Assembly (NCBI GenBank): GCA_016937995.1
Contig: JAFGVM010000057.1
Location: forward strand, 61,526-81,525
DNA length: 20,000 nt
Reading direction: 5' to 3'
Source of the DNA: Candidatus Delongbacteria bacterium
GTDB taxonomy: Bacteria; UBA4055
The translations under genes and the position numbers were made by a program. Under the pieces are notes generated by a model. It ran no database searches. It had not been told where the DNA came from and worked only from the letters and a program-made list of their open reading frames with translations. Shown one piece after another: positions 303 to 12,948 of the stretch; the first letter of the stretch is position 1; the number at the start of each line of letters is the position of its first letter.

Positions 303-845
303 ATGAAAAAACTTTTTATAATAATATTACTTCTCAACTTTATAGCCTTATTTTCAGGTGAGTTCGACCTGTTCAAAGAAAAAAAGGCGCAGGATCAAAG
401 TTTGTACAAGGACCTGAAACACAATAAAATAAGATTGTCCTATACTCTGTTCCCTGCAAGCTACAATAAAATTGGTTTTGCAGTAGAAGAATACATAACG
501 AAAAGACTTGGTTTTATGATCGAAGCTGATTTTTCAGATGAAGGATCAACCATGAAGGAAAAAGCTGAGATAATAATTGCAGGATCTTACCGTCTTACAA
601 AAAGAGTTAGAACTTGGGTCTTTCAGGGAAATTTAGGTCTTTCGTTCAATGATGATGTTGCTTATGATAATGGTATGAGCAAAGGATTCAGGACTAATCA
701 TATGTACGGCAGATTTACAGTTGAATACTTATTCAAGAACGGATTAGGATTTGACTTTTCCATGGTTGGAAGAATGCCAATAGAATTTGATATTAATGAG
801 GATATGTCACCTCAACATTCCATAGGAATACTTTTTAATTTCTAA
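303..845 (+). CDS. Putative small outer-membrane beta-barrel protein
   Basis: Signal peptide (MKKLFIIILLLNFIALFS), alternating amphipathic beta-strands, C-terminal IGILFNF ending in Phe. Confidence 0.65.
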   Translation: MKKLFIIILLLNFIALFSGEFDLFKEKKAQDQSLYKDLKHNKIRLSYTLFPASYNKIGFAVEEYITKRLGFMIEADFSDEGSTMKEKAEIIIAGSYRLTKRVRTWVFQGNLGLSFNDDVAYDNGMSKGFRTNHMYGRFTVEYLFKNGLGFDFSMVGRMPIEFDINEDMSPQHSIGILFNF

Positions 846-868
846 ATAACAAAACCGGCTGAACTAAA

Positions 869-2743
869 TTGAAATATTTTACGATACTCATACTGATATT
901 AGCATTATCATTTTTTTATGTTCTTACGATAAAAAACAGTGATTCAGAACCTGAAATTTCGAAAATTAAATTGATCTCTGAAATTGACACAAGTTTGATC
1001 GCAGAGGTTCCATACAATGATTTTTTAAAAAATATAGACATTGATGTTAAAAATTCATATTTTACAAAGAGTAATATTTTGATCGACAGTATGGAATATT
1101 TTGCTGAAGTTTTAGTAGCAAATGAAGATTCTTTGATATTCGAAATACCAAAAGAATTTAAAAATAGTGATATATATGTTGAGTTTAATTCATTTTCAAC
1201 GGTCAACTCAGGTTCTGTTTCGATAAAGCATGATCAGAAGCTAAAAAAGGTGGTCTTAGAAGAAACTACTTTTACAAAACATAGAATTTTTCTTGGCAAG
1301 GTGAAGTCAAGCATAGTTGTGCAGCAAAGTAGATCTACTTACATTTTTAATTTTAGATTATTAAGATCAGTTAAACCCCGATGGGACAGAAAAAAGAAGA
1401 AAAGCATTGTTATATTTGATATTGCTGGTCTAAAAGACAGTCTCATAAGTGATACTACAGCTTTTCCATTACTTTCAAAAATACGATCCAGATCAAAATA
1501 TTTTCCAAAAACTTTTTTGCAATCTTTAAATAGATATGAATCAAAAGTTTCATTCTTAAAATGCCTTGATACCTATTTAAATCTTGATAATTTTCCACCA
1601 TATAAGGATGAAAAAACAATAATAATGGATAGTTTGAGATATTCATCTTTGCCTGAGATCTATGATCTGTCAGGATATAATACACATTTTTACGGTAGCA
1701 GATCTGAAAATGATAACGGGATCATCACAATGTTCAATAACTCTTCTGTTTTCTTTCACGATCCCGGAAGCAACAGTCATATGATCAAAAAATTTTATAA
1801 CGATATAAACGAAAATAAAAATGCTGAAAATTTTTACTTTTTAGATCTTAATTGCGAAACAGATGACCATAATTTATACTTGAGAAATATTGATTATTTC
1901 CTGCGGGAATATTTTTTCTACGTTAAAACCAAAGTGAATCTGAATGACTACATTTTCATATTTATATCAAGTTCCTCGGATAAAATTTATGAACCTCTTA
2001 TAACTATGTTCTATTCTGAGGGTAACATTGAGCCTGTAAGAATAACAGCAAGAATAAATTTAACTGATGTTGCCAAAACGATCCTTAATTATTCAAAATT
2101 AAGATCCCCTGATCATTTTAACGGTAATGATCTAAGTTCTACATCAGAAATTGAAAGCAGAATGAGTATTTTAGGATCAGAACTCGATACACTGATATTT
2201 TATGACGAAAAGTTCATTTACAAAAAACAAAAGTACTCAGAGAATTTTAAATTAGAAACGATAGCTGAAGAAACTTATATTGTTAGAAAAAAACAGGATA
2301 TTGAACATGATTACAAAGAAGCTGTTTTACGGGAATACGAAGGTGACTATGTAAAATATTTTATATTCAGAAACAACAGTGAAAAGGTGAAGAATTATAA
2401 TATAAAAATAAATTCGAAAAGCAGATTCGTTCCATTTAATAATATTGAGGATTATTATTCTCAGAAAAAGAAACGGGGACAGTATGATCATACTTTGTCA
2501 GTGGAAGTAAAACCTTTTACCAATGATACGATCAAGCTGTTTTACAGACAGGAAGATCAGATTTTTAAAATGAAATTCGATACAAAGTTAAGATTGTCCT
2601 ATGGGGCTTTAAGCATTTTTGCAGGGGAATTGAAAGAGTTCTATGAAGAATCTGGATTTGGTAGAGATCGTACTGTTTACAATAAACAGGAAGTTTTTCA
2701 GGATTATGATGTTAAAATATTCAATAGAAGAATAAATTTTTGA
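869..2743 (+). CDS. Membrane-anchored sulfatase/alkaline-phosphatase-fold protein, apparently lacking catalytic motifs
   Basis: N-terminal hydrophobic anchor, TTG start. Scaffold segments resemble sulfatases (SIVIFDIAGL; SLPEIYDLSGYNTHFYG; INLTDVAKTILNYSKL..PDHFNGNDL), but there is no C/SxPxR and the SDHG motif reads SSSS. Confidence 0.55.
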   Translation: MKYFTILILILALSFFYVLTIKNSDSEPEISKIKLISEIDTSLIAEVPYNDFLKNIDIDVKNSYFTKSNILIDSMEYFAEVLVANEDSLIFEIPKEFKNSDIYVEFNSFSTVNSGSVSIKHDQKLKKVVLEETTFTKHRIFLGKVKSSIVVQQSRSTYIFNFRLLRSVKPRWDRKKKKSIVIFDIAGLKDSLISDTTAFPLLSKIRSRSKYFPKTFLQSLNRYESKVSFLKCLDTYLNLDNFPPYKDEKTIIMDSLRYSSLPEIYDLSGYNTHFYGSRSENDNGIITMFNNSSVFFHDPGSNSHMIKKFYNDINENKNAENFYFLDLNCETDDHNLYLRNIDYFLREYFFYVKTKVNLNDYIFIFISSSSDKIYEPLITMFYSEGNIEPVRITARINLTDVAKTILNYSKLRSPDHFNGNDLSSTSEIESRMSILGSELDTLIFYDEKFIYKKQKYSENFKLETIAEETYIVRKKQDIEHDYKEAVLREYEGDYVKYFIFRNNSEKVKNYNIKINSKSRFVPFNNIEDYYSQKKKRGQYDHTLSVEVKPFTNDTIKLFYRQEDQIFKMKFDTKLRLSYGALSIFAGELKEFYEESGFGRDRTVYNKQEVFQDYDVKIFNRRINF

Positions 2744-2773
2744 ACAAGGCAACATTCCTTATTACTTTTTATA

Positions 2774-2802
2774 TTGCCAATAGCCTTAGTTTTAGTTATA
2801 AT
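2774..2802 (+). promoter_or_regulatory. Sigma70-type promoter
   Basis: TTGCCA (2774-2779), 17-nt spacer, TATAAT (2797-2802), upstream of the GGAGGAG RBS and ATG 2858. Confidence 0.7.
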
Positions 2803-2857
2803 AGTAAATTATTGGATAATGTATGATAAATATAAATTTGTTTGTTCGGAGGAGAGA

Positions 2858-4414
2858 ATGAAAAAAATAATCACACTGGTATTGGTCCTTACGACTTTTG
2901 TTTTGACCGCTGCAATGGAAGAATATGACAGGAAATCAATATCTATTTTTAAAATGGATGTAACTCCTGCAGCTATCACTGCTACTCAGTCAGATGTCCA
3001 AATGATCTACGACGCGGTATTTCAAAAATTTACGAACATGGGAAGATTTGACTATAATCCCATACCAGCTGGAGTTACTAACGCTTCAGAACTTTTTGAG
3101 ATCGTAAAGGAATACACTGCAACAAAGATCGAAGAAAGAGCTGCAAAACAGTGGGATATAAAGAATGAGTATTACGGAACTAATTTTGTAACAGGAGAGA
3201 ACGTTGATAAGATAATGAACGGTGCATACATTCTCTTTCCTAGATTAAACGCATTCGCTGTTACAAAGAAAAAGAAAGGTGACGACTTTACAGCTTCGGT
3301 TTCTGTTTCAGTTGATGTCTATGCGGGAAAAAATACCGGTACAGTGGAAAATCCACAATGGACACCTGAATTGGTTAAGACTATAAATGCATCAGGTTCA
3401 AATGCTCTTGGAAGTTTATTTGATATTAACCTGAATCCAAAAAAGAAAGATAAGAGGAGCGAAGCGATAAAATCAGCTACGAATGGAATGCTTTTGTTTT
3501 TGGAAAAGGAGCTGAAGAAAATTGATGCTTTTAAAATAAAAGCTCTTGTAACTAAAGCTGAACCAAAGAAAGATAAAATAGCTTTTAATTTTGGAAAGAA
3601 CGTTGGTGTTAACGTTGACGATGCTTACACAGTTGGATATTTTATGAACAAAGGCGGTAAGCAGGAGTTCGTAGAAACAGGTTATATGAAAGTAAGAAAA
3701 GTCGACGACAAAGAATCAACTTCACAGCTTCTTATAGTTACAAATCCAAAGAATGAAAAAGAAGATGACCTTTTTAATGAGTACGATCAATGTTATGAAT
3801 ATCCTTTGGTTGGATTGAATATTTTTGTTCAGGGAGGTATGAACAGTTTTAAATTTTGGTCAGAAGATGCAGATTTTACTTCAACTCCTATAGTGGATTT
3901 AGAGGAAGAATCTATAACTGCTTTTGGTGGTTTAAATTTAGAATACGATATAGCAAAATTTGTTAAGATCCCTGAGTTGTATATTAATGCTACGTATGAT
4001 TTTTTGCCTGTTGAATTAGGTAATATAACTGAAATTGTAAATAGTGTATTGTACACTTATGAATATAGTGTAACTACTGGTATTGCTGAACTTGGATTTA
4101 CTAAGAAATTTTTTAGTAGAAGACTCGGATGGTATTTTGGAGCGGATGTAGGTTATATGATGATGAGTTTTGATCAAGGTGATGATACTACAAATGATTA
4201 TTATTCGGTAGGTGGTAAAGCAAAAGTAGGTATAAACTATATGCTTGATAAGCAATTACTTTTTGACTTAGGAGCAGGATATAGATTCTATGGTGAGTTA
4301 ACTGACGAAGATGGAAATGAAGTATTTGAAGCATGGGGTCCAGATTATGAAGGTGAAGGATGGTTAACACCTTCTGGATTTGTTGTTAGAGCAGGTTTAG
4401 GATTTACATTATAA
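2858..4414 (+). CDS. Secreted/outer-membrane protein: N-terminal periplasmic domain, FlgT-C-like middle domain, C-terminal beta-barrel
   Basis: Start moved to ATG 2858 (GGAGGAG RBS, signal peptide MKKIITLVLVLTTFVLTA). Middle segment IAFNFGKNVGVNVDDAYTV...GYMKVRKV resembles FlgT_C. The C-terminal ~190 aa are amphipathic beta-strands ending RAGLGFTL. Confidence 0.6.
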   Translation: MKKIITLVLVLTTFVLTAAMEEYDRKSISIFKMDVTPAAITATQSDVQMIYDAVFQKFTNMGRFDYNPIPAGVTNASELFEIVKEYTATKIEERAAKQWDIKNEYYGTNFVTGENVDKIMNGAYILFPRLNAFAVTKKKKGDDFTASVSVSVDVYAGKNTGTVENPQWTPELVKTINASGSNALGSLFDINLNPKKKDKRSEAIKSATNGMLLFLEKELKKIDAFKIKALVTKAEPKKDKIAFNFGKNVGVNVDDAYTVGYFMNKGGKQEFVETGYMKVRKVDDKESTSQLLIVTNPKNEKEDDLFNEYDQCYEYPLVGLNIFVQGGMNSFKFWSEDADFTSTPIVDLEEESITAFGGLNLEYDIAKFVKIPELYINATYDFLPVELGNITEIVNSVLYTYEYSVTTGIAELGFTKKFFSRRLGWYFGADVGYMMMSFDQGDDTTNDYYSVGGKAKVGINYMLDKQLLFDLGAGYRFYGELTDEDGNEVFEAWGPDYEGEGWLTPSGFVVRAGLGFTL

Positions 4415-4440: not shown

Positions 4441-5556
4441 ATGAAACTCAGAAAAATTATTATCATGCTGGTAGTTTTCAGCATTACAATGATCTACGCA
4501 CAGGCAAGTCAATATTCACATGACCACAATGTAACTGAAGTTGAAGTCAGTGGATACGGCTCATCCGTTCAGGTTGCTATTCAGGCAGCACAAAGAGAAG
4601 CTATATCAACTGCAATAGGTACATTTTTGACATCTGAGACAGAAATGCAGAATTACATGACAGTCAAAGACAAGATCCTTTCAAAAAGTGAAGGATTTGT
4701 AAAGTCCTTTGATGTGATCGACAGAGTAAAAGAAGCTGACGGTGGATGGACAGTAACAATAAAAGCAGCAGTTGCTAAAGATATGATCCTGACGGACCTT
4801 GAAGCACTGGGTGTTCTTTTATCTCAGCTGGATAATCCTTCAATAGTAGTTTTCTACGCACCGAAAGGAGAGCAGTATCATCCAAGATATACTGAACAGG
4901 CTATCAATCAGATCAATCAGTATTTTACAACATTCAGGTATGATGTGTATGATCTTGATCAATTGAACGCTATGATAGAAGATGATATCTCTATGAAAGA
5001 AGTCGGGTTGAACGAAGAAGTATCGATGGCTGAAATTTTGGCAAAGAAATTGAAATCAGATATTTATGTAACTGTAGCACTTATGCTGGAAGACCTAGGT
5101 AACGGTAAAAAGAAAGCTAAAGCTACTGCTAAGATATTCAATGCTTCAACAGCAAAATTACTGGGTGTACAGAACGGATACAGTGACGAGATCTATGGAA
5201 ATAACACTGCTCAGGATGCAAATATTGATCAGGCTGTTAAAAAACTTATGCCGCTTATTATGAACCAGGTTAAAGGTTACTGGAAACTTCAGCTGGATAA
5301 AGGTAAGCAGTACGTAATCATGTTCAGTAAACTTCCTAAAGGGAGAAAAGTTAAGAAGGCAATTACTGACGTTCTGTCTTCAGAGGCAAAAGAAATAAAG
5401 AAAGTTTCGACTACTGAATATCAGGTTTGGATCAGCGGTTCTATCGACGATTATATTGATGCAATCGGTGACGGAGTTCAAAATCAGATCTATGAAGGTA
5501 AGGATTTTGATTATGAGAATAGGGGAGACAGGATAAACATTTTCCCAGTGGAATAA
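4441..5556 (+). CDS. Secreted FlgT-N/LPP20-like domain protein (paralog A)
   Basis: Signal peptide. VEVSGYG...AIQAAQREAISTAIGTFLTSETEMQNY...DKILSKSEGFVKSFDVI...TVTIKAAV is the FlgT N-terminal-like pattern. Strong paralog of 11734-12948. Confidence 0.65.
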   Translation: MKLRKIIIMLVVFSITMIYAQASQYSHDHNVTEVEVSGYGSSVQVAIQAAQREAISTAIGTFLTSETEMQNYMTVKDKILSKSEGFVKSFDVIDRVKEADGGWTVTIKAAVAKDMILTDLEALGVLLSQLDNPSIVVFYAPKGEQYHPRYTEQAINQINQYFTTFRYDVYDLDQLNAMIEDDISMKEVGLNEEVSMAEILAKKLKSDIYVTVALMLEDLGNGKKKAKATAKIFNASTAKLLGVQNGYSDEIYGNNTAQDANIDQAVKKLMPLIMNQVKGYWKLQLDKGKQYVIMFSKLPKGRKVKKAITDVLSSEAKEIKKVSTTEYQVWISGSIDDYIDAIGDGVQNQIYEGKDFDYENRGDRINIFPVE

Positions 5557-5675: not shown

Positions 5676-5691
5676 TGTGTTTTTTGGAATG

Positions 5692-5718
5692 AGGGTGTAA
5701 TTTATTACGCCCTTTTTT
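5692..5718 (+). terminator. Intrinsic terminator
   Basis: AGGGTGTAA-ttta-TTACGCCCT followed by a T-run. Confidence 0.8.
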
Positions 5719-5732
5719 CATTAATTCATTTC

Positions 5733-5761
5733 TTGACTATTCATACCAGATTTGTTAAAAT
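5733..5761 (+). promoter_or_regulatory. Sigma70-type promoter with extended -10 for the riboswitch operon
   Basis: TTGACT (5733-5738), 17 nt, TAAAAT (5756-5761) preceded by TGn. Confidence 0.75.
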
Positions 5762-5790
5762 TCCGATCGTAGTTAAATTGAAATAAATAA

Positions 5791-5887
5791 AAGTTCTGAA
5801 GTCCGAAATCCTAAGGTCGTTACTATGGATCAGGACCGATGGGTCGCTCTCGAAAGGGAACGGTCTCCCGTGCTTGGAAAGGAGCTG
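5791..5887 (+). promoter_or_regulatory. Moco RNA motif riboswitch, P3-less (Tuco/tungsten-cofactor-type) variant
   Basis: P1 AGTTCT/GGAGCT sequesters the RBS. P2 is GTCC..ATCC-TAAG..CTAT-GGAT..GGAC. P4 is GGGTCG-CTCTC-GAAA-GGGAA-CGGTCT with a GNRA loop. The hallmark 3' CTCCCGTGCTTGGAAAGGAG compares with E. coli moaA leader CTCCCGTATCTGGAAAGGTG. Only 4 nt separate P2 and P4, so there is no P3. Confidence 0.85.
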
Positions 5888-5889
5888 AA

Positions 5890-6012
5890 ATGAAAAATAT
5901 CAATACCTACTGTTTTATATTTGCAGTTACAACCCCCAATACATATTTTAATTCGGAAATTTTTCCAAGCATGAACTTTTATTTCCCTGAGTTTAAAATT
6001 TCTAAATTATAA
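5890..6012 (+). CDS. Putative 40-aa leader peptide directly under riboswitch RBS control
   Basis: ATG 5 nt after the riboswitch GGAG. Translates MKNINTYCFIFAVTTPNTYFNSEIFPSMNFYFPEFKISKL*. Below the ORF-track length cutoff. Confidence 0.45.
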   Translation: MKNINTYCFIFAVTTPNTYFNSEIFPSMNFYFPEFKISKL

Positions 6013-6029
6013 AACAAAAGGAGAGAAAA

Positions 6030-6845
6030 ATGTTAAAGAAAATGACTGTTGCACTTTTTAGTGTGCTAATGATTATGTCCATCTTCACTGCTTGCACAGA
6101 TGAAAGTGATCCGGTAGCACCCGTAATTACGCCTGATGATACAATAATGTTAACTGTTGATGAAACTATTGATTCAACTTCTGCGTTTGAGTTCAAAGTA
6201 TCGACTGAAGATGTTACAAGAATCAAGATCTATTGGACGGAACTAGGAAGTGTTAATAATTCAGGTGAGACCGGAGATATTCAGGTATCAGTTTTAAAAA
6301 TGGATGGAGTTTCTCCGTATAAAATAATTGCAAATAGTAAAGATTTCATTAGAAAAGATAACAGTGAGATAGATGATCCTAAAGAAGTTTATGTTGATGC
6401 TGTCGAGGATACCCTGATAGTCAAAGTAGAACAAAAAACCGTACCTGGTACCTTCAAGCTCGTTGTCCAGAAAAATCCTGTTATTTTCTCTGTAAATGAT
6501 TCACTGATCGTTGATTCAGATATAAAAGATTATGAAGTATTCGTGAAAAATGCGGATAAAGCAATAATATACTGGCAGGAATTAGGTACATCTGAAGTGG
6601 GAAATGATAAAACTGCAAATGTTCAGGGGTCAGTTTACCAAATGGATTGGTTGACAGCTTACAAGCAGATCGAGAATGGTAAGGACTTTGAAGATAAAGA
6701 TAACAGCTCATGGGATAATCCTAAAGAAATCCTATTGGACAAAGGTGAGAATTTTATAAATGTAAGAATTGAAATGCTTGAGGATACAGGTGGTGTAATC
6801 GGTACATTCGGTCTGTTCGTTGTGGATACAAGTGATGAGGATTAG
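6030..6845 (+). CDS. Acidic lipoprotein with two tandem homologous beta-rich domains
   Basis: AAGGAG RBS, lipobox-like IFTA-C. Internal repeat: IKIYWTELG...YKIIANSKDFIRKDNSEIDDPKEV versus IIYWQELG...YKQIENGKDFEDKDNSSWDNPKEI. Confidence 0.8.
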   Translation: MLKKMTVALFSVLMIMSIFTACTDESDPVAPVITPDDTIMLTVDETIDSTSAFEFKVSTEDVTRIKIYWTELGSVNNSGETGDIQVSVLKMDGVSPYKIIANSKDFIRKDNSEIDDPKEVYVDAVEDTLIVKVEQKTVPGTFKLVVQKNPVIFSVNDSLIVDSDIKDYEVFVKNADKAIIYWQELGTSEVGNDKTANVQGSVYQMDWLTAYKQIENGKDFEDKDNSSWDNPKEILLDKGENFINVRIEMLEDTGGVIGTFGLFVVDTSDED

Positions 6846-8958
6846 TTTCGATCTAATATTAGTTATAACTGCGATAATTTTTGCACAATTCGAAGAAGTC
6901 GTTCTTCCCGAATTGAATGTAACTGTTGAGCAGGAAAGCATAGATATCAGGAAACTTGCGGCCAGCAGAAAGATAGTTATTAATCAGAAAGATTTTGAGA
7001 GTCTGGGGGATATTACTGCAGGTGATATTATTAAAAGGTATCCCGGTCTCTGGGTACAGGGACCGGGCGGTTCGAACAGGAACGTGATGCTTTGTGGACT
7101 CGATAAAGTATTTCAATCTATAATGATAGATGGAAACAGACCTTGCGGTGGTGAATCTGACAGAGAGTTCAAGCTGGACAGAATACCACTAGACATTATT
7201 GAGAAAATTGAAATAATAAATATCCCTACTGTAGATTATTGCTCTGATGCTGTTGCAGGTGTCGTAAATATTATAACGAAAAAAAATTCTTTAAGGAACT
7301 TTCTTACACTGGATATTGCTGCAATAACAAATTCGACAAACTACGATTATGCTAACGGAGAGTCATATCTTTCACTGCAGAAAAATAAATTTTTCTTGAG
7401 TGGAAGTTACAATAGAGAGACAAGGATTAATCTCGAAGAACTGAAAGATTCCTCAACAGGTATAACTGGTGAAGTGGAAGAAGATTGTGAAATTGATATA
7501 ATATCATTCAACTTAAATTACGATCTGTTTCTTAACAAGGATACCAAGATAGCACTCAAAGGACTATTTTCAAACTTTGATGAAATAAGAGATGTTGTTC
7601 AGGATGTTAAATTCAGAACTCAGGGTGGTTTGAACTACAGAGATATCATAACAGATCAGACAATACTGAGAAGAGTTAGTCAGTTAGGAGTTATTTTTAA
7701 CCATAGGTTTGATGATTACCACGATATCTCATCAGAAATTAGTGTAAGCAGAGCTGATGATGAGAAAGAAAAATATGTCACTGAGGATAAGATCGATAGT
7801 TTTGTTTACACGGATGAGAATGAAGATCAACTGAATCATGAATATATGTTCTCTACAGATTATAAAAATCTGAATTCTTCAATATTCTCTTATTCAAACA
7901 CGGTTAAAACAGGATTAAAATTTAACTATTTGACCAGAGATTATAACAGATTTGTTAAAACCACAGAAATAGTTGATCCTGATACTGTGTTAATAGATGA
8001 AGATGGTTCATTTGATTATTCTGAATTGCAGGCAGGATTGTATTTGAGAGATGAGATCTACATCGAGTCAATTATTTTTTCTCTTGGATTAAGATCGGAA
8101 TATGCATACTATGAATATAAAGTGATCGACTCGGTCCAAACAGGTAATAATGATTATTTCTACTTGAATCCATCTTTGCTCATCAATTATAAAGTTAAGG
8201 ACAATTATATTGTTAAAGCCGGTTTTTCTAAGCAGATAGCCAGACCCCCTTTTGCCTCGGTAGTTCCAATTGATAAGATCAAAACTAAAAAAAATATCAT
8301 TGAAAGAGGTAATCCGGACTTAAAACCAGCAAATGCTTTGGTTTATAACCTGGGTTTTGAATTCTACAGTAAAAAAGAGTTTTATTCTATTTTCGGTTAT
8401 TTCAAAGATGTAAAAGATATTATTGAGATAAAGGACGTGGGTATAGATACAGCTACTGGCTATAATATCCAGCAGTATGTCAATATTTCAAAAGCACTTG
8501 TATTCGGTGTGGACTTTGAGTTCAATACTGAGCTTGATAGAATCGGGATGAAGGGATTTTCATTCTCAGGAAATTATTCATGGTTGGGATCACAGGTAAA
8601 AGATGAGAATATAGATGTTATGCGGCGTTTGAACGAACAGCCTAAGCATATCGCAAATGCCAGCTTAAGTTATAGGATTGATCCGTGGGTGGCAACAGTA
8701 GGTGGGACCTTCAGTGATGAGAAAGTGATCTGGGGTACTATTGTTGACGGTGTAGTTATTGACAAAACAGTTACAGACAGTTATCTTCAGTTCGACGGAT
8801 CAGTAAAATATTTTATGAGTGAAAATACAATTATTTATATAAATGTAAGCAATATTTTCGGAGAAGATATTACTGTTACTCAGGGGAATGTTACCGGTGT
8901 TGAAGAAGTGGGTACAAAATTTACGCTTGGTTTTAAATATGGTATGAAAGGGTCATAG
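6835..8958 (+). CDS. TonB-dependent outer-membrane receptor
   Basis: Likely ATG at 6835. TonB-box-like ELNVTV, plug motifs (IMIDG; LDRIPLDIIEKIEII; DAVAGVVNIITKK), barrel motifs (RGNPDLKP; YINVSNIF). Confidence 0.92.
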   Translation: MRISFDLILVITAIIFAQFEEVVLPELNVTVEQESIDIRKLAASRKIVINQKDFESLGDITAGDIIKRYPGLWVQGPGGSNRNVMLCGLDKVFQSIMIDGNRPCGGESDREFKLDRIPLDIIEKIEIINIPTVDYCSDAVAGVVNIITKKNSLRNFLTLDIAAITNSTNYDYANGESYLSLQKNKFFLSGSYNRETRINLEELKDSSTGITGEVEEDCEIDIISFNLNYDLFLNKDTKIALKGLFSNFDEIRDVVQDVKFRTQGGLNYRDIITDQTILRRVSQLGVIFNHRFDDYHDISSEISVSRADDEKEKYVTEDKIDSFVYTDENEDQLNHEYMFSTDYKNLNSSIFSYSNTVKTGLKFNYLTRDYNRFVKTTEIVDPDTVLIDEDGSFDYSELQAGLYLRDEIYIESIIFSLGLRSEYAYYEYKVIDSVQTGNNDYFYLNPSLLINYKVKDNYIVKAGFSKQIARPPFASVVPIDKIKTKKNIIERGNPDLKPANALVYNLGFEFYSKKEFYSIFGYFKDVKDIIEIKDVGIDTATGYNIQQYVNISKALVFGVDFEFNTELDRIGMKGFSFSGNYSWLGSQVKDENIDVMRRLNEQPKHIANASLSYRIDPWVATVGGTFSDEKVIWGTIVDGVVIDKTVTDSYLQFDGSVKYFMSENTIIYINVSNIFGEDITVTQGNVTGVEEVGTKFTLGFKYGMKGS

Positions 8959-9696
8959 ATGAATTTTTATATTGCTATAGATGATACAGATAATATTGGT
9001 ACTGCAGGAACTGGAGAGATCCTTGAAAATTTAATAGTTGAGCTATCAGATAAGTTTGAGACTTCATTTTCCAGAGTTACAAGACATCAGCTTCTTGTTC
9101 ACAAAGATATAAAATATACTTCACATAACAGTTCAATGTGTTCATCAGCATTTGTTGATACCTCAATTATTCCTTTTATTATCGATCACTCGATAGAATT
9201 TCTAACAAAAAATTGTGCAGAAGGTTCTGATCCCGGACTATGCATTGTTGATATAGATAAAGTGAATGATAATGGAGTTGAAAAGATCAAAAAGTGGGGA
9301 TCGGACGCTAAAAGAAATGTTCTCTGTAAAAAGGATGCATATTTATTGGCTAAGGAAACCGGAATTCACTTGTCTGAGCATGGTGGGACCGGAGATGGTA
9401 TCATTGGTGCTTTAGCCGGGATAGGGCTGAGACTTTCAGGGAATGATGGTAGATTCAAAGGTAAATTTGATCTAGATGTTAAGAACGGTTTTATCAAAGT
9501 TAGAGACATCCTTCTATCTCCGTCAATTGATATTGTAACAACAGAATGTGGTTCAAAGTTATCTCCGGATGATGAAGTATTTATCACCGACAAATTAAAA
9601 ACTATACTGAAAGATCACAAGTCTGTCCTGATGATCAGGAAGAATAAAGAAGGTCACTGGGAAAATCTTTCAAGAAAAGAGCTGAAGGTATATTAA
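8959..9696 (+). CDS. TiaS N-terminal-like (DDTD motif) protein of unknown function
   Basis: IAIDDTD..GTG, RHQL, YTSHNSSMC, SDPGLC, HLSEHGGTGDGIIGALAGIGL resemble the N-terminal catalytic region of TiaS. The tRNA-binding OB/zinc-ribbon part is absent. Confidence 0.7.
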   Translation: MNFYIAIDDTDNIGTAGTGEILENLIVELSDKFETSFSRVTRHQLLVHKDIKYTSHNSSMCSSAFVDTSIIPFIIDHSIEFLTKNCAEGSDPGLCIVDIDKVNDNGVEKIKKWGSDAKRNVLCKKDAYLLAKETGIHLSEHGGTGDGIIGALAGIGLRLSGNDGRFKGKFDLDVKNGFIKVRDILLSPSIDIVTTECGSKLSPDDEVFITDKLKTILKDHKSVLMIRKNKEGHWENLSRKELKVY

Positions 9697-9893
9697 TGTG
9701 GGAAAAAGTAGACGGAAATAAAGTGTTCAGGTATTCAGTTGAAGATCATATAAAATTATCCTTAGCAGCGGAAGAGTGTCAAAATTTTTTAGTTGATGAT
9801 GAGGATGAGATAATTGATGATTCTGTTTCATGTCAGAACTGTGCTTACCGGAGATGGGGTGAGAATACTATTTATTGTATGAGGACTGAATGA
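9696..9893 (+). CDS. Small 4-Cys acidic putative metal-binding protein
   Basis: C-x2-F..DDEDE..SCxNCxYRRW..C pattern. Translationally coupled on both sides (TAATG overlap and ATGA overlap). Confidence 0.75.
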   Translation: MWEKVDGNKVFRYSVEDHIKLSLAAEECQNFLVDDEDEIIDDSVSCQNCAYRRWGENTIYCMRTE

Positions 9894-11602
9894 AGTCTGT
9901 AAAATTTCTGCTAAAATATTTATTGAAAACGAAAAAGTATATTGGACTCGGTATACTTTTTACTTTATTGATGAGTATTTTCGAGATATTTCCGGGGATG
10001 ATTTACAAAGTAATTGCTGATTCTCTATCAAATTTAAGTACGAATTCAAAATTTCTAAATATCAAGATACCGGTGAAAATACTTGATATGAAGTATGAAA
10101 CTTACAAGTTCAATATAAAAGACAGCGACCAGATATTTAATGTTTTCCTATTGATCTGTGCTTCTTTTTTAACGATCTATATTTTAAGTGGATTATTCAG
10201 ATACTTCAGAGATATTTATTTCAATTTTGCTGTTCAGAGGATACTCAAGGATATAAAAGATGTTATTTGCAGGAAGATACTTAATCTGCCTTTCCCTCAT
10301 TTCAATAAAAATAAGACCGGTGACCTGATGTCAAGGATCACGTATGATGTTACGATATTACATAACATAATTGATGTATTCATAGAGCTTTCTAGGTCAA
10401 TGATAGCTCTTTTGATATTTCTTCCGATACTTTTCTATATAGATTGGAAGATATCTTTCTTTGCAATACTTTTTTTTCCTGTATCTCTTTATCTGGTGAA
10501 ATATTTATCCAGAAAGATGAAAAAGCTGAGTAAAGGTATCTCTGATACAACTGCGGACTATACTGAATTTATCAAAGATAAGGTTGAGCGTATTCAGTCA
10601 ATTAAAATCGCAGGAGAAGAATCGAACGAACTAGATGATTTTAAATCTCTGACAAAGAGGAATTATGATCTTGCGGTTAGAAATATAAAGATAAAATTCT
10701 TCCTTAAACCTTCGAATGAAATAATCGGTATATTTGGTATCGTTATCATTGCAATTTATTTCTGCTATTTGTTGATAAATAAAGAAATGGGTGCCGGTAA
10801 TATTGTACTTTATCTATCGATCCTGAAATCAGCCTATAAACCGTTTAAAAAAGCAGCTGAATCATTTGGAGACTTACACTTCTCTTTAGCCGGAGCTGAT
10901 AAAATAACAACTCTTTTGGACAATGACGAAGAAAGCGCAGCGGATCTTGAACCAATATCGTCGATCGATTCCATAATCTGCAACAACGTTTGTTATAAAA
11001 TTGAGGATAAAGTAATACTTAAAGATATTTCTCTGAAGTTAATAAAAGGTTCAAAAGTAGGAGTGACAGGCATCTCAGGAAGCGGAAAGACCAGTTTTGT
11101 AAATCTTCTTCCACGGTTGAATATCCTTACTGATGGTGAGATATTATTCAATGAAAAATCTCTGAACGATTTGGATATTTCAAGTGTCAGAAGCAGGATA
11201 TCTTTTGTAAATAACGGCTTTACTCCGATCAACGGTTCTATCTTCGACAATCTTACTTACGGTATCCCTGAACCTGAAAAAGCAATGAAAGAATTTACTT
11301 CAAATTTCGATATGAAGACATTTTTAAATATAGCTGATTACGAACCTGAAATTGTGATCGGCAAGACCGGTATGAATTTATCAACAGGTCAGCTGCAGAA
11401 GATCGCGTTGATAAATGCAGTTCTCAGAAAACCTGAACTTTTTATCATCGATGAAGGATTTGATCTTTTGAGCAGTGACGATATCGAACAATTTTTATCA
11501 CTGGTCATGGAAGATTCAATTTTATTAGTAGTTTCAAGGCAGAAATTTATCCTTGATAGGATGGATAAGGTCTATAAAATGGTCGAAGGTACAATTCAAT
11601 AA
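9890..11602 (+). CDS. MsbA-like ABC exporter (fused TMD-NBD) with degenerate NBD motifs
   Basis: TM helices with KTGDLMSRITYD, Walker A GISGSGKT, signature LSTGQ, Walker B FIIDE. Q-loop, D-loop and H-switch are altered. Confidence 0.85.
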   Translation: MKSVKFLLKYLLKTKKYIGLGILFTLLMSIFEIFPGMIYKVIADSLSNLSTNSKFLNIKIPVKILDMKYETYKFNIKDSDQIFNVFLLICASFLTIYILSGLFRYFRDIYFNFAVQRILKDIKDVICRKILNLPFPHFNKNKTGDLMSRITYDVTILHNIIDVFIELSRSMIALLIFLPILFYIDWKISFFAILFFPVSLYLVKYLSRKMKKLSKGISDTTADYTEFIKDKVERIQSIKIAGEESNELDDFKSLTKRNYDLAVRNIKIKFFLKPSNEIIGIFGIVIIAIYFCYLLINKEMGAGNIVLYLSILKSAYKPFKKAAESFGDLHFSLAGADKITTLLDNDEESAADLEPISSIDSIICNNVCYKIEDKVILKDISLKLIKGSKVGVTGISGSGKTSFVNLLPRLNILTDGEILFNEKSLNDLDISSVRSRISFVNNGFTPINGSIFDNLTYGIPEPEKAMKEFTSNFDMKTFLNIADYEPEIVIGKTGMNLSTGQLQKIALINAVLRKPELFIIDEGFDLLSSDDIEQFLSLVMEDSILLVVSRQKFILDRMDKVYKMVEGTIQ

Positions 11603-11733: not shown

Positions 11734-12948
11734 ATGAAGCTAAAAATGATATTTATTTTGATAACAATGTTACTTATATCTTCCTGTGTAACAGTAAAGC
11801 ATGTTTCACCAATGGAAAGGGATAAGGATAAACTTGAAGAATCACCTGTTGAAGAAGTGAAGGTCGAAGAGCAGAATCTTACCACCGGAAACAAGATCAG
11901 TCAGTATTCTCATGATCATAATATAACGGAAGTGGAAGCTCAGGGGATCGGAGTTGACAGAGAATCTGCGATCAAAGATGCTCAGAGAAATGCAATTACA
12001 ACTGCAATCGGTACATACCTTGTATCAGAGCAGGAAATGCAGAATTATATGACCGTTAAAGATGATATCCTTTCAAAGAGTGAAGGTTTTGTGAAAGCTT
12101 ATGATGTTATCGATCAGATGAGAGAAGCTGACGGGAGCTGGACTGTGACTATAAAAGCAGCTGTCACAAAAGATATCGTGATGAGCGATCTTGAGTCGTT
12201 GGGAATCCTTTTAGCACAGCTTGACAATCCATCTCTGGTTGTTTTCTACGCTCCAAAAGGAGTAAATTACGACAAAAGATATACTGAGCAGGCAATAAAT
12301 AATATTAATCAGTATTTTACTATCAACAGATACGATGTTTACGATCTTGAGCAATTGAATAAAATGATCGAAGATGACATTGCATTAAAAGAGATCGGTC
12401 TTGATGAAAATGTTACAATGGCTGAACTTCTGTCAAAGAAATTGAAAGCTGATATCTATGTTACAGTAGCAATAATGCTTGAAGACCTTGGGAACGGTAA
12501 AAAGAAAGCTAAAGCCACAGCTAAAATATTCAATTCTTCCACAGCTAAGCTTCTAGGTGTTCAGAACGGTTACAGTGATGAGATATGGGGGAATAATACA
12601 GCTTACGATGCAAATATAGACCAGGCTATCAAGAAACTTATGCCGATGATAATGAATCAGGTTAAAGGTTACTGGGTAGAACAGCTTGATAAGGGAAAGC
12701 AGTATATTCTAATGTTCAGTGATCTTCCTCAGGGAAGAGAGTACAAAAAGGCTCTATTCGATATCTTAGATACAACTGCAAGAGAAGTGAAGAAAGTTTC
12801 TTACGAAGAATATGTTATCTGGATCAGAAAGAATATTGATGAATATATCGATTCTATCGGTGATGCAATTCAAAAGCAGATATATGATGGTAAGGAATTC
12901 GATTATGAGAATAGGGGTGAGCGGATAAATATTTATTTGACGAAATAA
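11734..12948 (+). CDS. Lipoprotein, FlgT-N/LPP20-like domain (paralog B)
   Basis: AAGGAG RBS, lipobox LISS-C. From SQYSHDHN onward it aligns end-to-end with 4441-5556. Confidence 0.7.
   Translation: MKLKMIFILITMLLISSCVTVKHVSPMERDKDKLEESPVEEVKVEEQNLTTGNKISQYSHDHNITEVEAQGIGVDRESAIKDAQRNAITTAIGTYLVSEQEMQNYMTVKDDILSKSEGFVKAYDVIDQMREADGSWTVTIKAAVTKDIVMSDLESLGILLAQLDNPSLVVFYAPKGVNYDKRYTEQAINNINQYFTINRYDVYDLEQLNKMIEDDIALKEIGLDENVTMAELLSKKLKADIYVTVAIMLEDLGNGKKKAKATAKIFNSSTAKLLGVQNGYSDEIWGNNTAYDANIDQAIKKLMPMIMNQVKGYWVEQLDKGKQYILMFSDLPQGREYKKALFDILDTTAREVKKVSYEEYVIWIRKNIDEYIDSIGDAIQKQIYDGKEFDYENRGERINIYLTK

Follow-up and report, generated by a model that had tools for sequence, protein, structure and literature searches.

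A P3-less Moco/Tuco riboswitch operon from a Candidatus Delongbacteria bacterium points to tungsten uptake coupled to a conserved TiaS-kinase-like protein and its Cys4 partner

Introduction

Two questions of cofactor biology are open: how a cell picks tungsten rather than molybdenum, and by what path the metal gets from transporter to pterin. Tup, Wtp and Mod, the routes of entry known so far, end at the inner membrane. TupABC, ModABC and WtpABC stand under riboswitches of the molybdenum-cofactor/tungsten-cofactor (Moco/Tuco) class as described by Regulski 2008 (PMC2408646), where motifs without helix P3 are associated, by correlation, with users of the tungsten cofactor. Here we analyse a 20,000-nucleotide stretch of a Candidatus Delongbacteria genome (GCA_016937995.1, contig JAFGVM010000057.1, positions 61,526 to 81,525 of the forward strand; hereafter the window). 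At 5733–11602 of the window a P3-less riboswitch of this class precedes five coupled genes, for a lipoprotein, a TonB-dependent receptor, a stand-alone protein resembling the kinase domain of TiaS (here called DDTD), an acidic four-cysteine (Cys4) mini-protein and an ATP-binding cassette (ABC) half-transporter. With moderate confidence we read it as a cofactor-repressed operon for acquiring tungsten, possibly molybdenum, that includes an uncharacterised ATP-dependent cytoplasmic handling module.

The operon shares with Tup, Mod and Wtp its class of regulator and presumably its purpose, supply of tungsten or molybdenum when cofactor is low, and TupA-like genes share gene islands with DDTD in Desulfuromonadales. 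It differs in its parts: no component of those systems is encoded in the window and searches of the host genome found none either, and in their stead are a TonB receptor, a surface lipoprotein, an exporter-fold ABC protein and two extra cytoplasmic proteins. A closer parallel to many DDTD loci is MolBC-A (HI1470/71/72) of Haemophilus influenzae, a type II importer whose binding protein, MolA, has molybdate and tungstate as ligands (PMC4031551). MolA-like binders with FecCD permeases and ATPases occur at 39 of 80 DDTD loci, whereas the window itself has neither FecCD nor binding-protein genes, and the accessible text of PMC4031551 records neither a DDTD/mini partner nor a riboswitch for MolBC-A.

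Two published observations come nearest to the regulatory arrangement. P3-less RF01055 motifs (Tuco riboswitches) stand ahead of two FecCD-type ABC importer operons in Eubacterium limosum, FetABC1 and FetABC2, which were read as iron uptake systems; fetABC1 rose under tungsten limitation and fetABC2 sits with an XdhC-family gene (PMC11725836). By the supplementary gene tables of that paper, no DDTD-sized or mini gene follows these operons, and they have no outer-membrane part, the organism being Gram-positive. TonB-dependent channels have also been noted near molybdopterin riboswitches in Pelobacter (PMC3543383). A first-pass annotation of the window, made from its letters alone, held that no characterised pathway resembled this one; the E. 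limosum and Pelobacter reports, as far as their accessible text goes, call for a qualification. We found no description of the DDTD/mini module in the literature on Moco/Tuco riboswitches, on TonB-dependent receptors or on TiaS together with the molybdenum cofactor.

Vitamin and siderophore routes combine a TonB receptor and a surface lipoprotein with BtuCDF, energy-coupling factor (ECF) transporters or the exporter-fold importers YbtPQ, IrtAB and Rv1819c. The architecture of the window operon is alike, running from capture protein through TonB gate and inner-membrane ABC protein to a cytoplasmic enzyme at the end of the operon. It differs in being under a metal-pterin riboswitch, not under Fur or a B12 riboswitch, and in having a receptor of no specific subfamily and a lipoprotein of no known family.

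Results

The leader of the operon contains a Moco/Tuco riboswitch aptamer at 5782–5900 (plus strand). The Rfam model RF01055 matches it over model positions 1–135 with 58.3 bits, against a gathering score of 36 (E 6.8e-12), and our covariance model R1 scores it at 81.1 bits; a scan of the whole genome found it again. Model positions belonging to P3 are deleted in the RF01055 alignment and the match is 119 nt long. Helices P1, P2, P4 and P5 are present, P4 being closed in the alignment by a GAAA tetraloop (CGAAAG), and four pairs of P2 are kept by changes on both sides among four orthologous leaders. The first-pass annotation was right in recognising here a genuine Moco/Tuco motif without P3.

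No intrinsic terminator was found between the aptamer and the start codon. A candidate switching sequence occupies 5960–5984 (plus strand). Within it, 5973–5984 is perfectly complementary to 5785–5796, that is, to the 5′ flank and 5′ strand of P1, and 5962–5971 is complementary to the P5 region at 5871–5880. The arrangement is conserved in three orthologous leaders, as judged by alignment and by a consensus fold of the four leaders, and one compensatory change separates the window from its orthologues (T for C in the P1 flank, A for G in the downstream element). Further downstream, at 6012–6025 (plus strand), a AAACAAAAGG stretch followed by a GGAGAG Shine–Dalgarno sequence is constant in all four leaders, and the orthologues' downstream CTTTTGTTT element is complementary to the invariant AAACAAAAGG that abuts the Shine–Dalgarno sequence. 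From these four sequences we infer a translational OFF switch. Without ligand, the downstream element would pair with the aptamer and the ribosome site would be free; with ligand, P1 would form and the released element would mask the ribosome-binding site, so that expression stops.

The five genes follow on the plus strand: the 271-residue lipoprotein (6030–6845), the 712-residue receptor, counted from a TTG start (6820–8958), the 245-residue DDTD protein (8959–9696), the 65-residue mini-protein (9696–9893) and the 570-residue ABC half-transporter (9890–11602). They are joined by an overlap and by TAG-ATG, TAATG and ATGA junctions. The promoter, RNA and five coupled genes listed in the first-pass annotation are thus all present where it placed them, and Pfam and NCBIfam scans of the window proteins agree with it that there is no mod, tup or moa gene. 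Three further genomes from the host's family share the order Moco motif, lipoprotein, receptor, DDTD, mini-protein and ABC gene, with Moco motifs of 78–81 bits and, in one of the three, no ABC gene seen after the mini gene. Orthologous proteins are 54–64% identical, but the lipoproteins only 31–37%; lipoprotein orthologues occur in loci L097, L098 and L099, and the ABC half-transporter is kept in L097 and L099. Within the family DDTD was found in 5 of the 16 genomes, whereas a sample of 25 other relatives yielded none.

By its motifs and by a structural match, the DDTD protein appears to be a member of the TiaS kinase-domain (TCKD) superfamily. Family searches yield weak matches to TiaS and to methanogenesis-marker-11. 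A profile of 16 DDTD sequences finds the TiaS kinase domain in the PDB with E 6e-7, covering TiaS residues 1–153, in keeping with the earlier description of the protein as TiaS-N-like, and the Atlas model of DDTD matches TiaS structures at a TM score of ~0.63, which places it with TiaS_TCKD. When aligned with TiaS (3au7, 4rvz), the acid cluster of DDTD, the Thr18 position and the GxGxIGALAxxG loop coincide. The alignment of the 16 sequences has 57 invariant columns, including D8, D9, T10, D11, T18 and G142–G154. Also invariant are His43, 48, 56, 137 and 141 and Cys95, with Cys61 nearly so; these residues have no TiaS equivalent in the alignment. The family is large and bacterial. Of 5315 candidates from a word-indexed search, 4608 protein clusters reach E<=0.001, and in species genomes at least 565 of the 602 pattern-matching stretches listed are confirmed DDTD matches. 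Members occur in Thermodesulfobacteriota, Bacillota, Leptospirales, Delongbacteria and other groups.

TiaS is the archaeal tRNA(Ile2) agmatidine synthetase (3amt, 3au7, 4rvz), and the likeness is confined to its N-terminal kinase fold and motifs, whereas DDTD is bacterial, is tied to transporters and riboswitches and has the extra invariant His and Cys residues. DDTD is not TiaS proper: NF040849 scores 22.6 bits against an equivalog cut-off of 600 and covers only residues 1–159. Its 245 residues leave no space for the OB and zinc-ribbon domains of TiaS. These comparisons bear on the notion that DDTD and the mini-protein modify RNA or protein in the manner of TiaS, handle no metal and merely share operons with transporters. 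The conserved TiaS motifs (DDTD, the Thr18 position, GxGxIGALA) would suit such an enzyme, and Atlas cluster names recall the TiaS zinc ribbon for the Cys4 element. With the low TiaS score, the missing domain space, the bacterial distribution, the added His and Cys, and a placement behind Moco motifs and importers that is repeated in many phyla, we regard its likelihood as close to negligible.

The mini-protein is acidic and has four cysteines, as the first reading of the gene had it; its isoelectric point is 4.41 and the cysteines are at 28, 46, 49 and 61. Its conserved motif is C...DDEDE...SCxNCxYRRW...C, in which the four Cys, the acidic run and Arg52 are among the invariant residues and Arg53 and Trp54 are nearly invariant. 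No Pfam family was assigned (best 0.0015, below cut-off) and a profile search found no solved relative. Two close relatives were found by word search and 191 representative clusters by profile.

DDTD and the mini-protein form one conserved unit. We took the best 80 genome loci of DDTD, clustered same-strand neighbours and then named their families, counting mini genes with a hidden Markov model. The mini gene lies directly 3′ of DDTD in 50 of these loci and is displaced in 2 more. Moreover, among the best 150 of the 191 mini-profile clusters, 14 are full-length DDTD-mini fusions of 290–391 residues, and three larger fusions (P0126, P0133 and P0130) carry the mini motif right after the DDTD domain. 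Adjacency, taken with natural fusion, shows that the two proteins act together.

Of 19 longer DDTD-containing proteins looked at, 15 have DDTD fused to FAD (DAO) and BFD [2Fe-2S] oxidoreductase domains. The link to DAO and BFD is seen in proteins P0126–P0141 and in loci L114, L119, L165 and L176, some of which are ECF/receptor operons. One protein joins Pyr_redox_2 and DUF1667 to DDTD.

A paper of 2010 observed that FmdE genes (PF02663), which can carry a C-terminal zinc finger, are mostly neighbours of genes for metal-ion transporters (PMC2954224). In a Leptospirales metagenome-assembled genome, an FmdE-family protein with a C4 zinc finger (L026:8738-9388) holds the position of the mini-protein after DDTD, and in a second (L046) FmdE likewise replaces it, as judged by clustering; no sequence similarity between FmdE and the mini-protein was detected. 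A second MolA-like/FecCD set lies 3′ of FmdE in these genomes. One FmdE query found no FmdE gene in the Delongbacteria host.

The nature of the mini-protein bears on a further alternative, in which the operon would make a methanobactin-like metallophore: DDTD would modify the mini-protein as a precursor, the ABC protein would export the product and the receptor would retrieve its metal-loaded form. A gene for a small Cys-rich peptide, an ATP-type enzyme, an exporter-fold ABC protein and a TonB receptor in one operon do resemble the layout of methanobactin clusters. The mini-protein, however, is a conserved domain with invariant Cys4 and RYRRW and not a leader followed by a variable core; it is fused to the C terminus of DDTD in at least 14 clusters and gives way to zinc-finger FmdE in L026 and L046 (by clustering). 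DDTD accompanies an exporter-fold ABC protein in 0 of the 80 loci, other lineages having importers. Nor does the ABC protein have a peptidase domain or the mini-protein a cleavage motif, and no dedicated maturation enzymes are found among the window proteins. A metallophore is, on these grounds, very improbable.

The DDTD family is statistically tied to Moco motifs. Using our covariance model, built from 14 mapped P3-less motifs, which under-detects P3-bearing motifs because its seeds are all P3-less, we found 51 Moco motifs in the 80 loci, spread over 27 of them. A motif lies within 8 kb upstream of DDTD on the same strand in 26 loci, or 27 including L018, where the open reading frame call had hidden the spacing between motif and DDTD; in 13 loci it lies within 400 nt. 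The first 50 host genomes of DDTD contain 175 motifs in 209 Mb, which gives an expectation of ~0.003 per upstream stretch, so that motifs are enriched roughly a hundredfold upstream of DDTD. All 17 of the DDTD-linked motifs rechecked with the Rfam model pass its threshold (50–79 bits); they span 116–123 nt and therefore lack P3. In Geobacteraceae/Desulfuromonadaceae islands (L021, L025, L047, L058 and L066), up to four P3-less motifs occur within ~6 kb, some of them in tandem pairs and some standing separately before DDTD-mini and before ECF/TonB genes. The AOR N-terminal domain is encoded, often in many copies, by 46 of 50 DDTD-bearing genomes, compared with 7 of 25 unrelated and 5 of 14 control genomes.

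DDTD often lies among uptake genes. Parts of uptake systems lie on the same strand in 55 of the 80 loci (FecCD/Peripla_BP_2 in 39, ECF CbiQ in 12, a TonB receptor in 15 and TonB in 6). The FecCD set consists of a FecCD permease, an ABC ATPase and a Peripla_BP_2 binder, and the ECF set of a fused ECF ATPase, a CbiQ-type T component and a family-less membrane protein of 190 residues. Surface Ig-like neighbours also occur, Big_5 in 24 loci (one with an LPXTG anchor) and fn3 as well. Tungsten islands of Desulfuromonadales place around DDTD-mini a MoaE, porins, two TupA-like binders, a WtpC-like ATPase and MoaA, together with an AA_kinase-family protein, an XdhC-family AOR maturation factor and a DVU_1551-family NTP transferase. 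A second, independent set of 80 metagenome DDTD loci has the same contexts. The survey of neighbourhoods proposed in the first-pass annotation thus returns a massive enrichment of DDTD and SCxNCxYRRW homologues near Moco motifs, TonB receptors and tungsten/molybdenum genes. Riboswitch control, gene neighbourhood, natural fusions and AOR co-occurrence are four independent lines that support a tie between the DDTD family and tungsten.

Two kinds of neighbour drew attention in their own right. The 190-residue family-less membrane protein (L066:11738-12310; its cluster occurs in 18 loci) sits between the CbiQ-type T component or TonB receptor and DDTD, and is a candidate for a new ECF substrate-capture component for the ligand of these loci. 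An AA_kinase-family protein of ~268 residues and a partner of 70–95 residues precede DDTD in several loci (for example L052:6731-7537). The molybdenum-storage protein of Azotobacter belongs to the AA_kinase fold family, and this neighbour may be a store for tungsten or molybdenum.

The binding proteins beside DDTD give a hint of the ligand. A profile of 22 of them matches an unnamed binder, 4ovk, at 2e-47 and MolA (HI_1472, 3psa/3psh) at 4.8e-43, while siderophore, haem and B12 binders are found at 1e-8 or worse. The MolA-like binders therefore favour a plain oxyanion as ligand, at least at the FecCD-type loci. They also speak to the proposal that these systems supply iron, or another metal, in step with production of tungsten enzymes, through uptake of a chelate for Fe-S-rich enzymes from which DDTD/mini would free the iron. 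Iron chelates are the classic cargo of TonB receptors and FecCD systems, and a Cys4 protein could hold an Fe-S cluster. Further, the two E. limosum operons behind Tuco riboswitches have been called iron transporters, and cellular iron in that organism was 12-fold higher on lactate; the same report, in its accessible text, has fetABC1 up under tungsten limitation and fetABC2 co-operonic with an XdhC-family gene (PMC11725836). An OFF switch would, moreover, cut iron uptake just when cofactor, and hence assembly of tungsten enzymes, is high. MolA is a much nearer match to the binders than any siderophore binder, the neighbouring genes are TupA, MoaE, XdhC-type and FmdE genes and not iron genes, and no other tungsten or molybdenum transporter was found in the host genome. 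Iron supply is thus an improbable function, and E. limosum fetABC1/2 may themselves be MolA-like tungstate/molybdate importers.

The window operon encodes three envelope proteins. The lipoprotein has a sole Cys, at residue 22, and two internal repeats of ~100 residues each that are 40% identical over 99 residues (E 7e-20). It matches no known family in Pfam or NCBIfam scans, and its low-confidence model resembles only beta-sandwich proteins in the Atlas, weakly (TM <0.5); we propose that it captures the ligand at the cell surface. The receptor has an N-terminal plug (Plug, 44.3 bits) and a 22-strand barrel domain (TonB_dep_Rec_b-barrel, 115.7 bits), as a TonB-dependent receptor should; an alternative ATG start lies six codons 3′ of the TTG, and its matches are to generic TonB-receptor and plug families, with none to a specific subfamily. 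Two TonB_C and two ExbD genes that could energise it are on the same contig (19–23 kb).

The ABC half-transporter fuses a six-helix domain (ABC_membrane, 107.5 bits) to a nucleotide-binding domain (ABC_tran, 70.5 bits) in the exporter (type IV) fold. It falls outside the MsbA equivalog (TIGR02203, 237.8 bits against a cut-off of 602). Exporter-fold ABC genes adjoin DDTD in 0 of the 80 genome loci and, outside the window, only in the relatives L097 and L099. The first-pass annotation named it an exporter, which is right as to fold; its role is probably import across the inner membrane, by analogy, because the same place in the operon is held in other lineages by unambiguous importers.

The host genome (2.75 Mb, 34.6% G+C, 97% complete) has the enzymes that such an operon would serve. 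Checking for the AOR and moa genes singled out in the first-pass annotation, we found an AOR-family enzyme, MoaA, MoaC, MoaB and MoeA; tup genes, which it had also named, were absent from the search results. A second Moco motif stands ahead of MoaA-MoaC-MOSC-MOSC/MoaB, MoeA is accompanied by a further MOSC protein, and one PF00384 protein of 1214 residues lies beside NuoE/F-like genes. Searches of this 97%-complete genome found no TupA, TupB, ModA, WtpA or MolA-like binder, and the sole PBP_like_2/SBP_bac_11 match is PstS, inside a pst-pho operon. The operon is therefore the only candidate for tungsten or molybdenum transport in the host.

Searches for MoaE (molybdopterin synthase) found none in the 16 genomes of the host's family, several of them 95–99% complete, although 13 of the 16 yielded an AOR-family enzyme. 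The host's only ThiS-family gene sits in a thiamine operon, and three MOSC genes adjoin moaC, moaB and moeA. Sulfur insertion on the way to molybdopterin may be non-canonical in this family. Replacement of molybdopterin synthase by DDTD/mini was considered and rejected, as MoaE is missing in 16 of 16 genomes and DDTD is present in only 5, and elsewhere DDTD adjoins MoaE.

The missing MoaE, set against the frequent AOR, also gives weight to salvage, in which the operon would import what other anaerobes release, be it molybdopterin, a fragment of the cofactor or a dephosphorylated precursor, for DDTD to re-phosphorylate or activate and the Cys4 partner to protect or carry. DDTD is accompanied by a TonB receptor with type II ABC, ECF and exporter-fold ABC importer classes, and those three classes serve bulky vitamins such as B12. 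The carriers are mostly anaerobes, in which an oxygen-labile pterin could persist, the fused DAO and BFD oxidoreductases suggest an organic substrate, and the TiaS domain is a kinase, according to the accessible part of PMC11938285. Against this, the DDTD-adjacent binders are MolA-like oxyanion binders, the host keeps MoaA and MoaC behind a riboswitch of their own, and Desulfuromonadales DDTD loci adjoin MoaE and MoaA. Of the 13 genomes in this MoaE-less family that have an AOR enzyme, just 5 were found to have the operon, so it cannot be the family's general source of cofactor. Import of molybdopterin is not known from any organism. We consider salvage unlikely, if less so than iron supply.

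The unit is bounded at its 5′ end by a terminator-like hairpin with a T run (5691–5714, plus strand), which ends the preceding gene. A sigma-70-like promoter, TTGACT-17-TAAAAT with an extended -10 TG, lies at 5733–5761 (plus strand); it is a consensus match, and with 1 such site observed against 1.9 expected in shuffles it is by itself not significant. No intrinsic terminator was found 3′ of the ABC half-transporter gene. Two DUF6175/LipL46-like lipoprotein genes on the operon's strand flank it, at 4441–5556 and 11734–12948; their proteins are 75% identical, and the DNA repeats are 72–77% identical and 7392 nt apart. The operon may have entered between the copies of such a duplicated gene, or along with it. 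Its surroundings in relatives differ from this DUF6175-flanked site. Further 5′, at 303–4414, three consecutive open reading frames (180, 624 and 546 residues) have no Pfam or NCBIfam family match.

Discussion

That this is an operon for uptake and processing related to tungsten or molybdenum is well supported. We picture its operation as follows. When the metal-pterin cofactor is scarce, the P3-less riboswitch would leave the leader open and the five genes would be made. The two-repeat surface lipoprotein would capture the ligand, the TonB-dependent receptor would carry it across the outer membrane and the ABC half-transporter would move it across the inner membrane, a direction assigned by analogy. 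In the cytoplasm the DDTD/mini pair would handle the imported metal species and pass the metal to cofactor synthesis, DDTD as an ATP-using, TiaS-kinase-like enzyme with an added His/Cys-rich site and the mini-protein as its Cys4, Arg-rich partner. When cofactor is plentiful, the aptamer would fold and the released switching sequence would mask the ribosome-binding site.

The first-pass annotation had also read the operon as importing and processing tungsten or molybdenum, and the riboswitch, the AOR enzymes and the neighbourhoods bear that out. Three of the four outcomes that it had named as refuting, namely no covariance-model match, a genome free of tungsten or molybdenum enzymes, and homologues not enriched near such genes, were checked and did not occur. 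Its more specific suggestion of a metallo-pterin or metal chelate as ligand finds no such backing, the FecCD-type loci favouring an oxyanion. A chelate or a pterin is less favoured; the DAO-BFD fusions and the vitamin-type importers would suit an organic ligand. As to the metal, tungsten is favoured and molybdenum possible, the AOR-family protein of the host being of the long type.

Several observations weigh against a tungsten acquisition operon with a dedicated handling module. Fifty-three of the 80 DDTD loci have no Moco motif within reach, 15 of the 80 having less than 4 kb of upstream sequence, 28 have no mini gene and 19 have no uptake part. The co-occurrence counts take no account of kinship or of the anaerobic lifestyle of the hosts. 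A search for RNA runs that contain the operon listed none. The nearest solved relatives of the ABC half-transporter, MsbA, BmrA and Sav1866, are exporters. Fusion and adjacency of DDTD-mini to FAD (DAO) and BFD [2Fe-2S] oxidoreductases hint at redox chemistry or an organic substrate in the DDTD pathway. The host AOR-family protein has 719 residues, and YdhV, the long AOR homologue of E. coli, carries molybdenum and not tungsten; the host enzyme could use molybdenum too. A TupA-like gene coexists with the operon in three relatives (G059, G060 and G065), so that it is not a simple substitute for Tup, and we rejected the idea that the two are alternatives; where both occur, the operon may carry another species. 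Finally, selectivity of P3-less motifs for the tungsten cofactor rests, in print, on correlation (PMC2408646, in its accessible text).

Beyond the host, a bolder proposal can be put forward tentatively. DDTD and its Cys4 partner may be a widespread, unrecognised ATP-dependent step of tungsten cofactor biogenesis, a cytoplasmic pair of enzyme and chaperone that activates or selects newly imported tungsten or delivers it to the pterin-insertion machinery. It would be served by several high-affinity routes, among them the first TonB-dependent uptake of tungsten across an outer membrane, and the FecCD operons behind Tuco riboswitches would be tungsten importers. We hold this broader view as a possibility, with less confidence than the reading of the window operon itself.

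The comparisons also suggest another reading for published 'iron' transporters behind Tuco riboswitches. Cultivable carriers of DDTD include Geomonas, Geomesophilobacter, Neobacillus, Thermincola, Phosphitispora and Petroclostridium. The host operon points to TonB-powered uptake of a tungsten or molybdenum species at the outer membrane. A large, conserved family of thousands of members that had no assigned function is now linked, with its mini partner, to tungsten metabolism, and the DDTD-mini unit is probably the mark of a so far unrecognised step in the acquisition or handling of tungsten.

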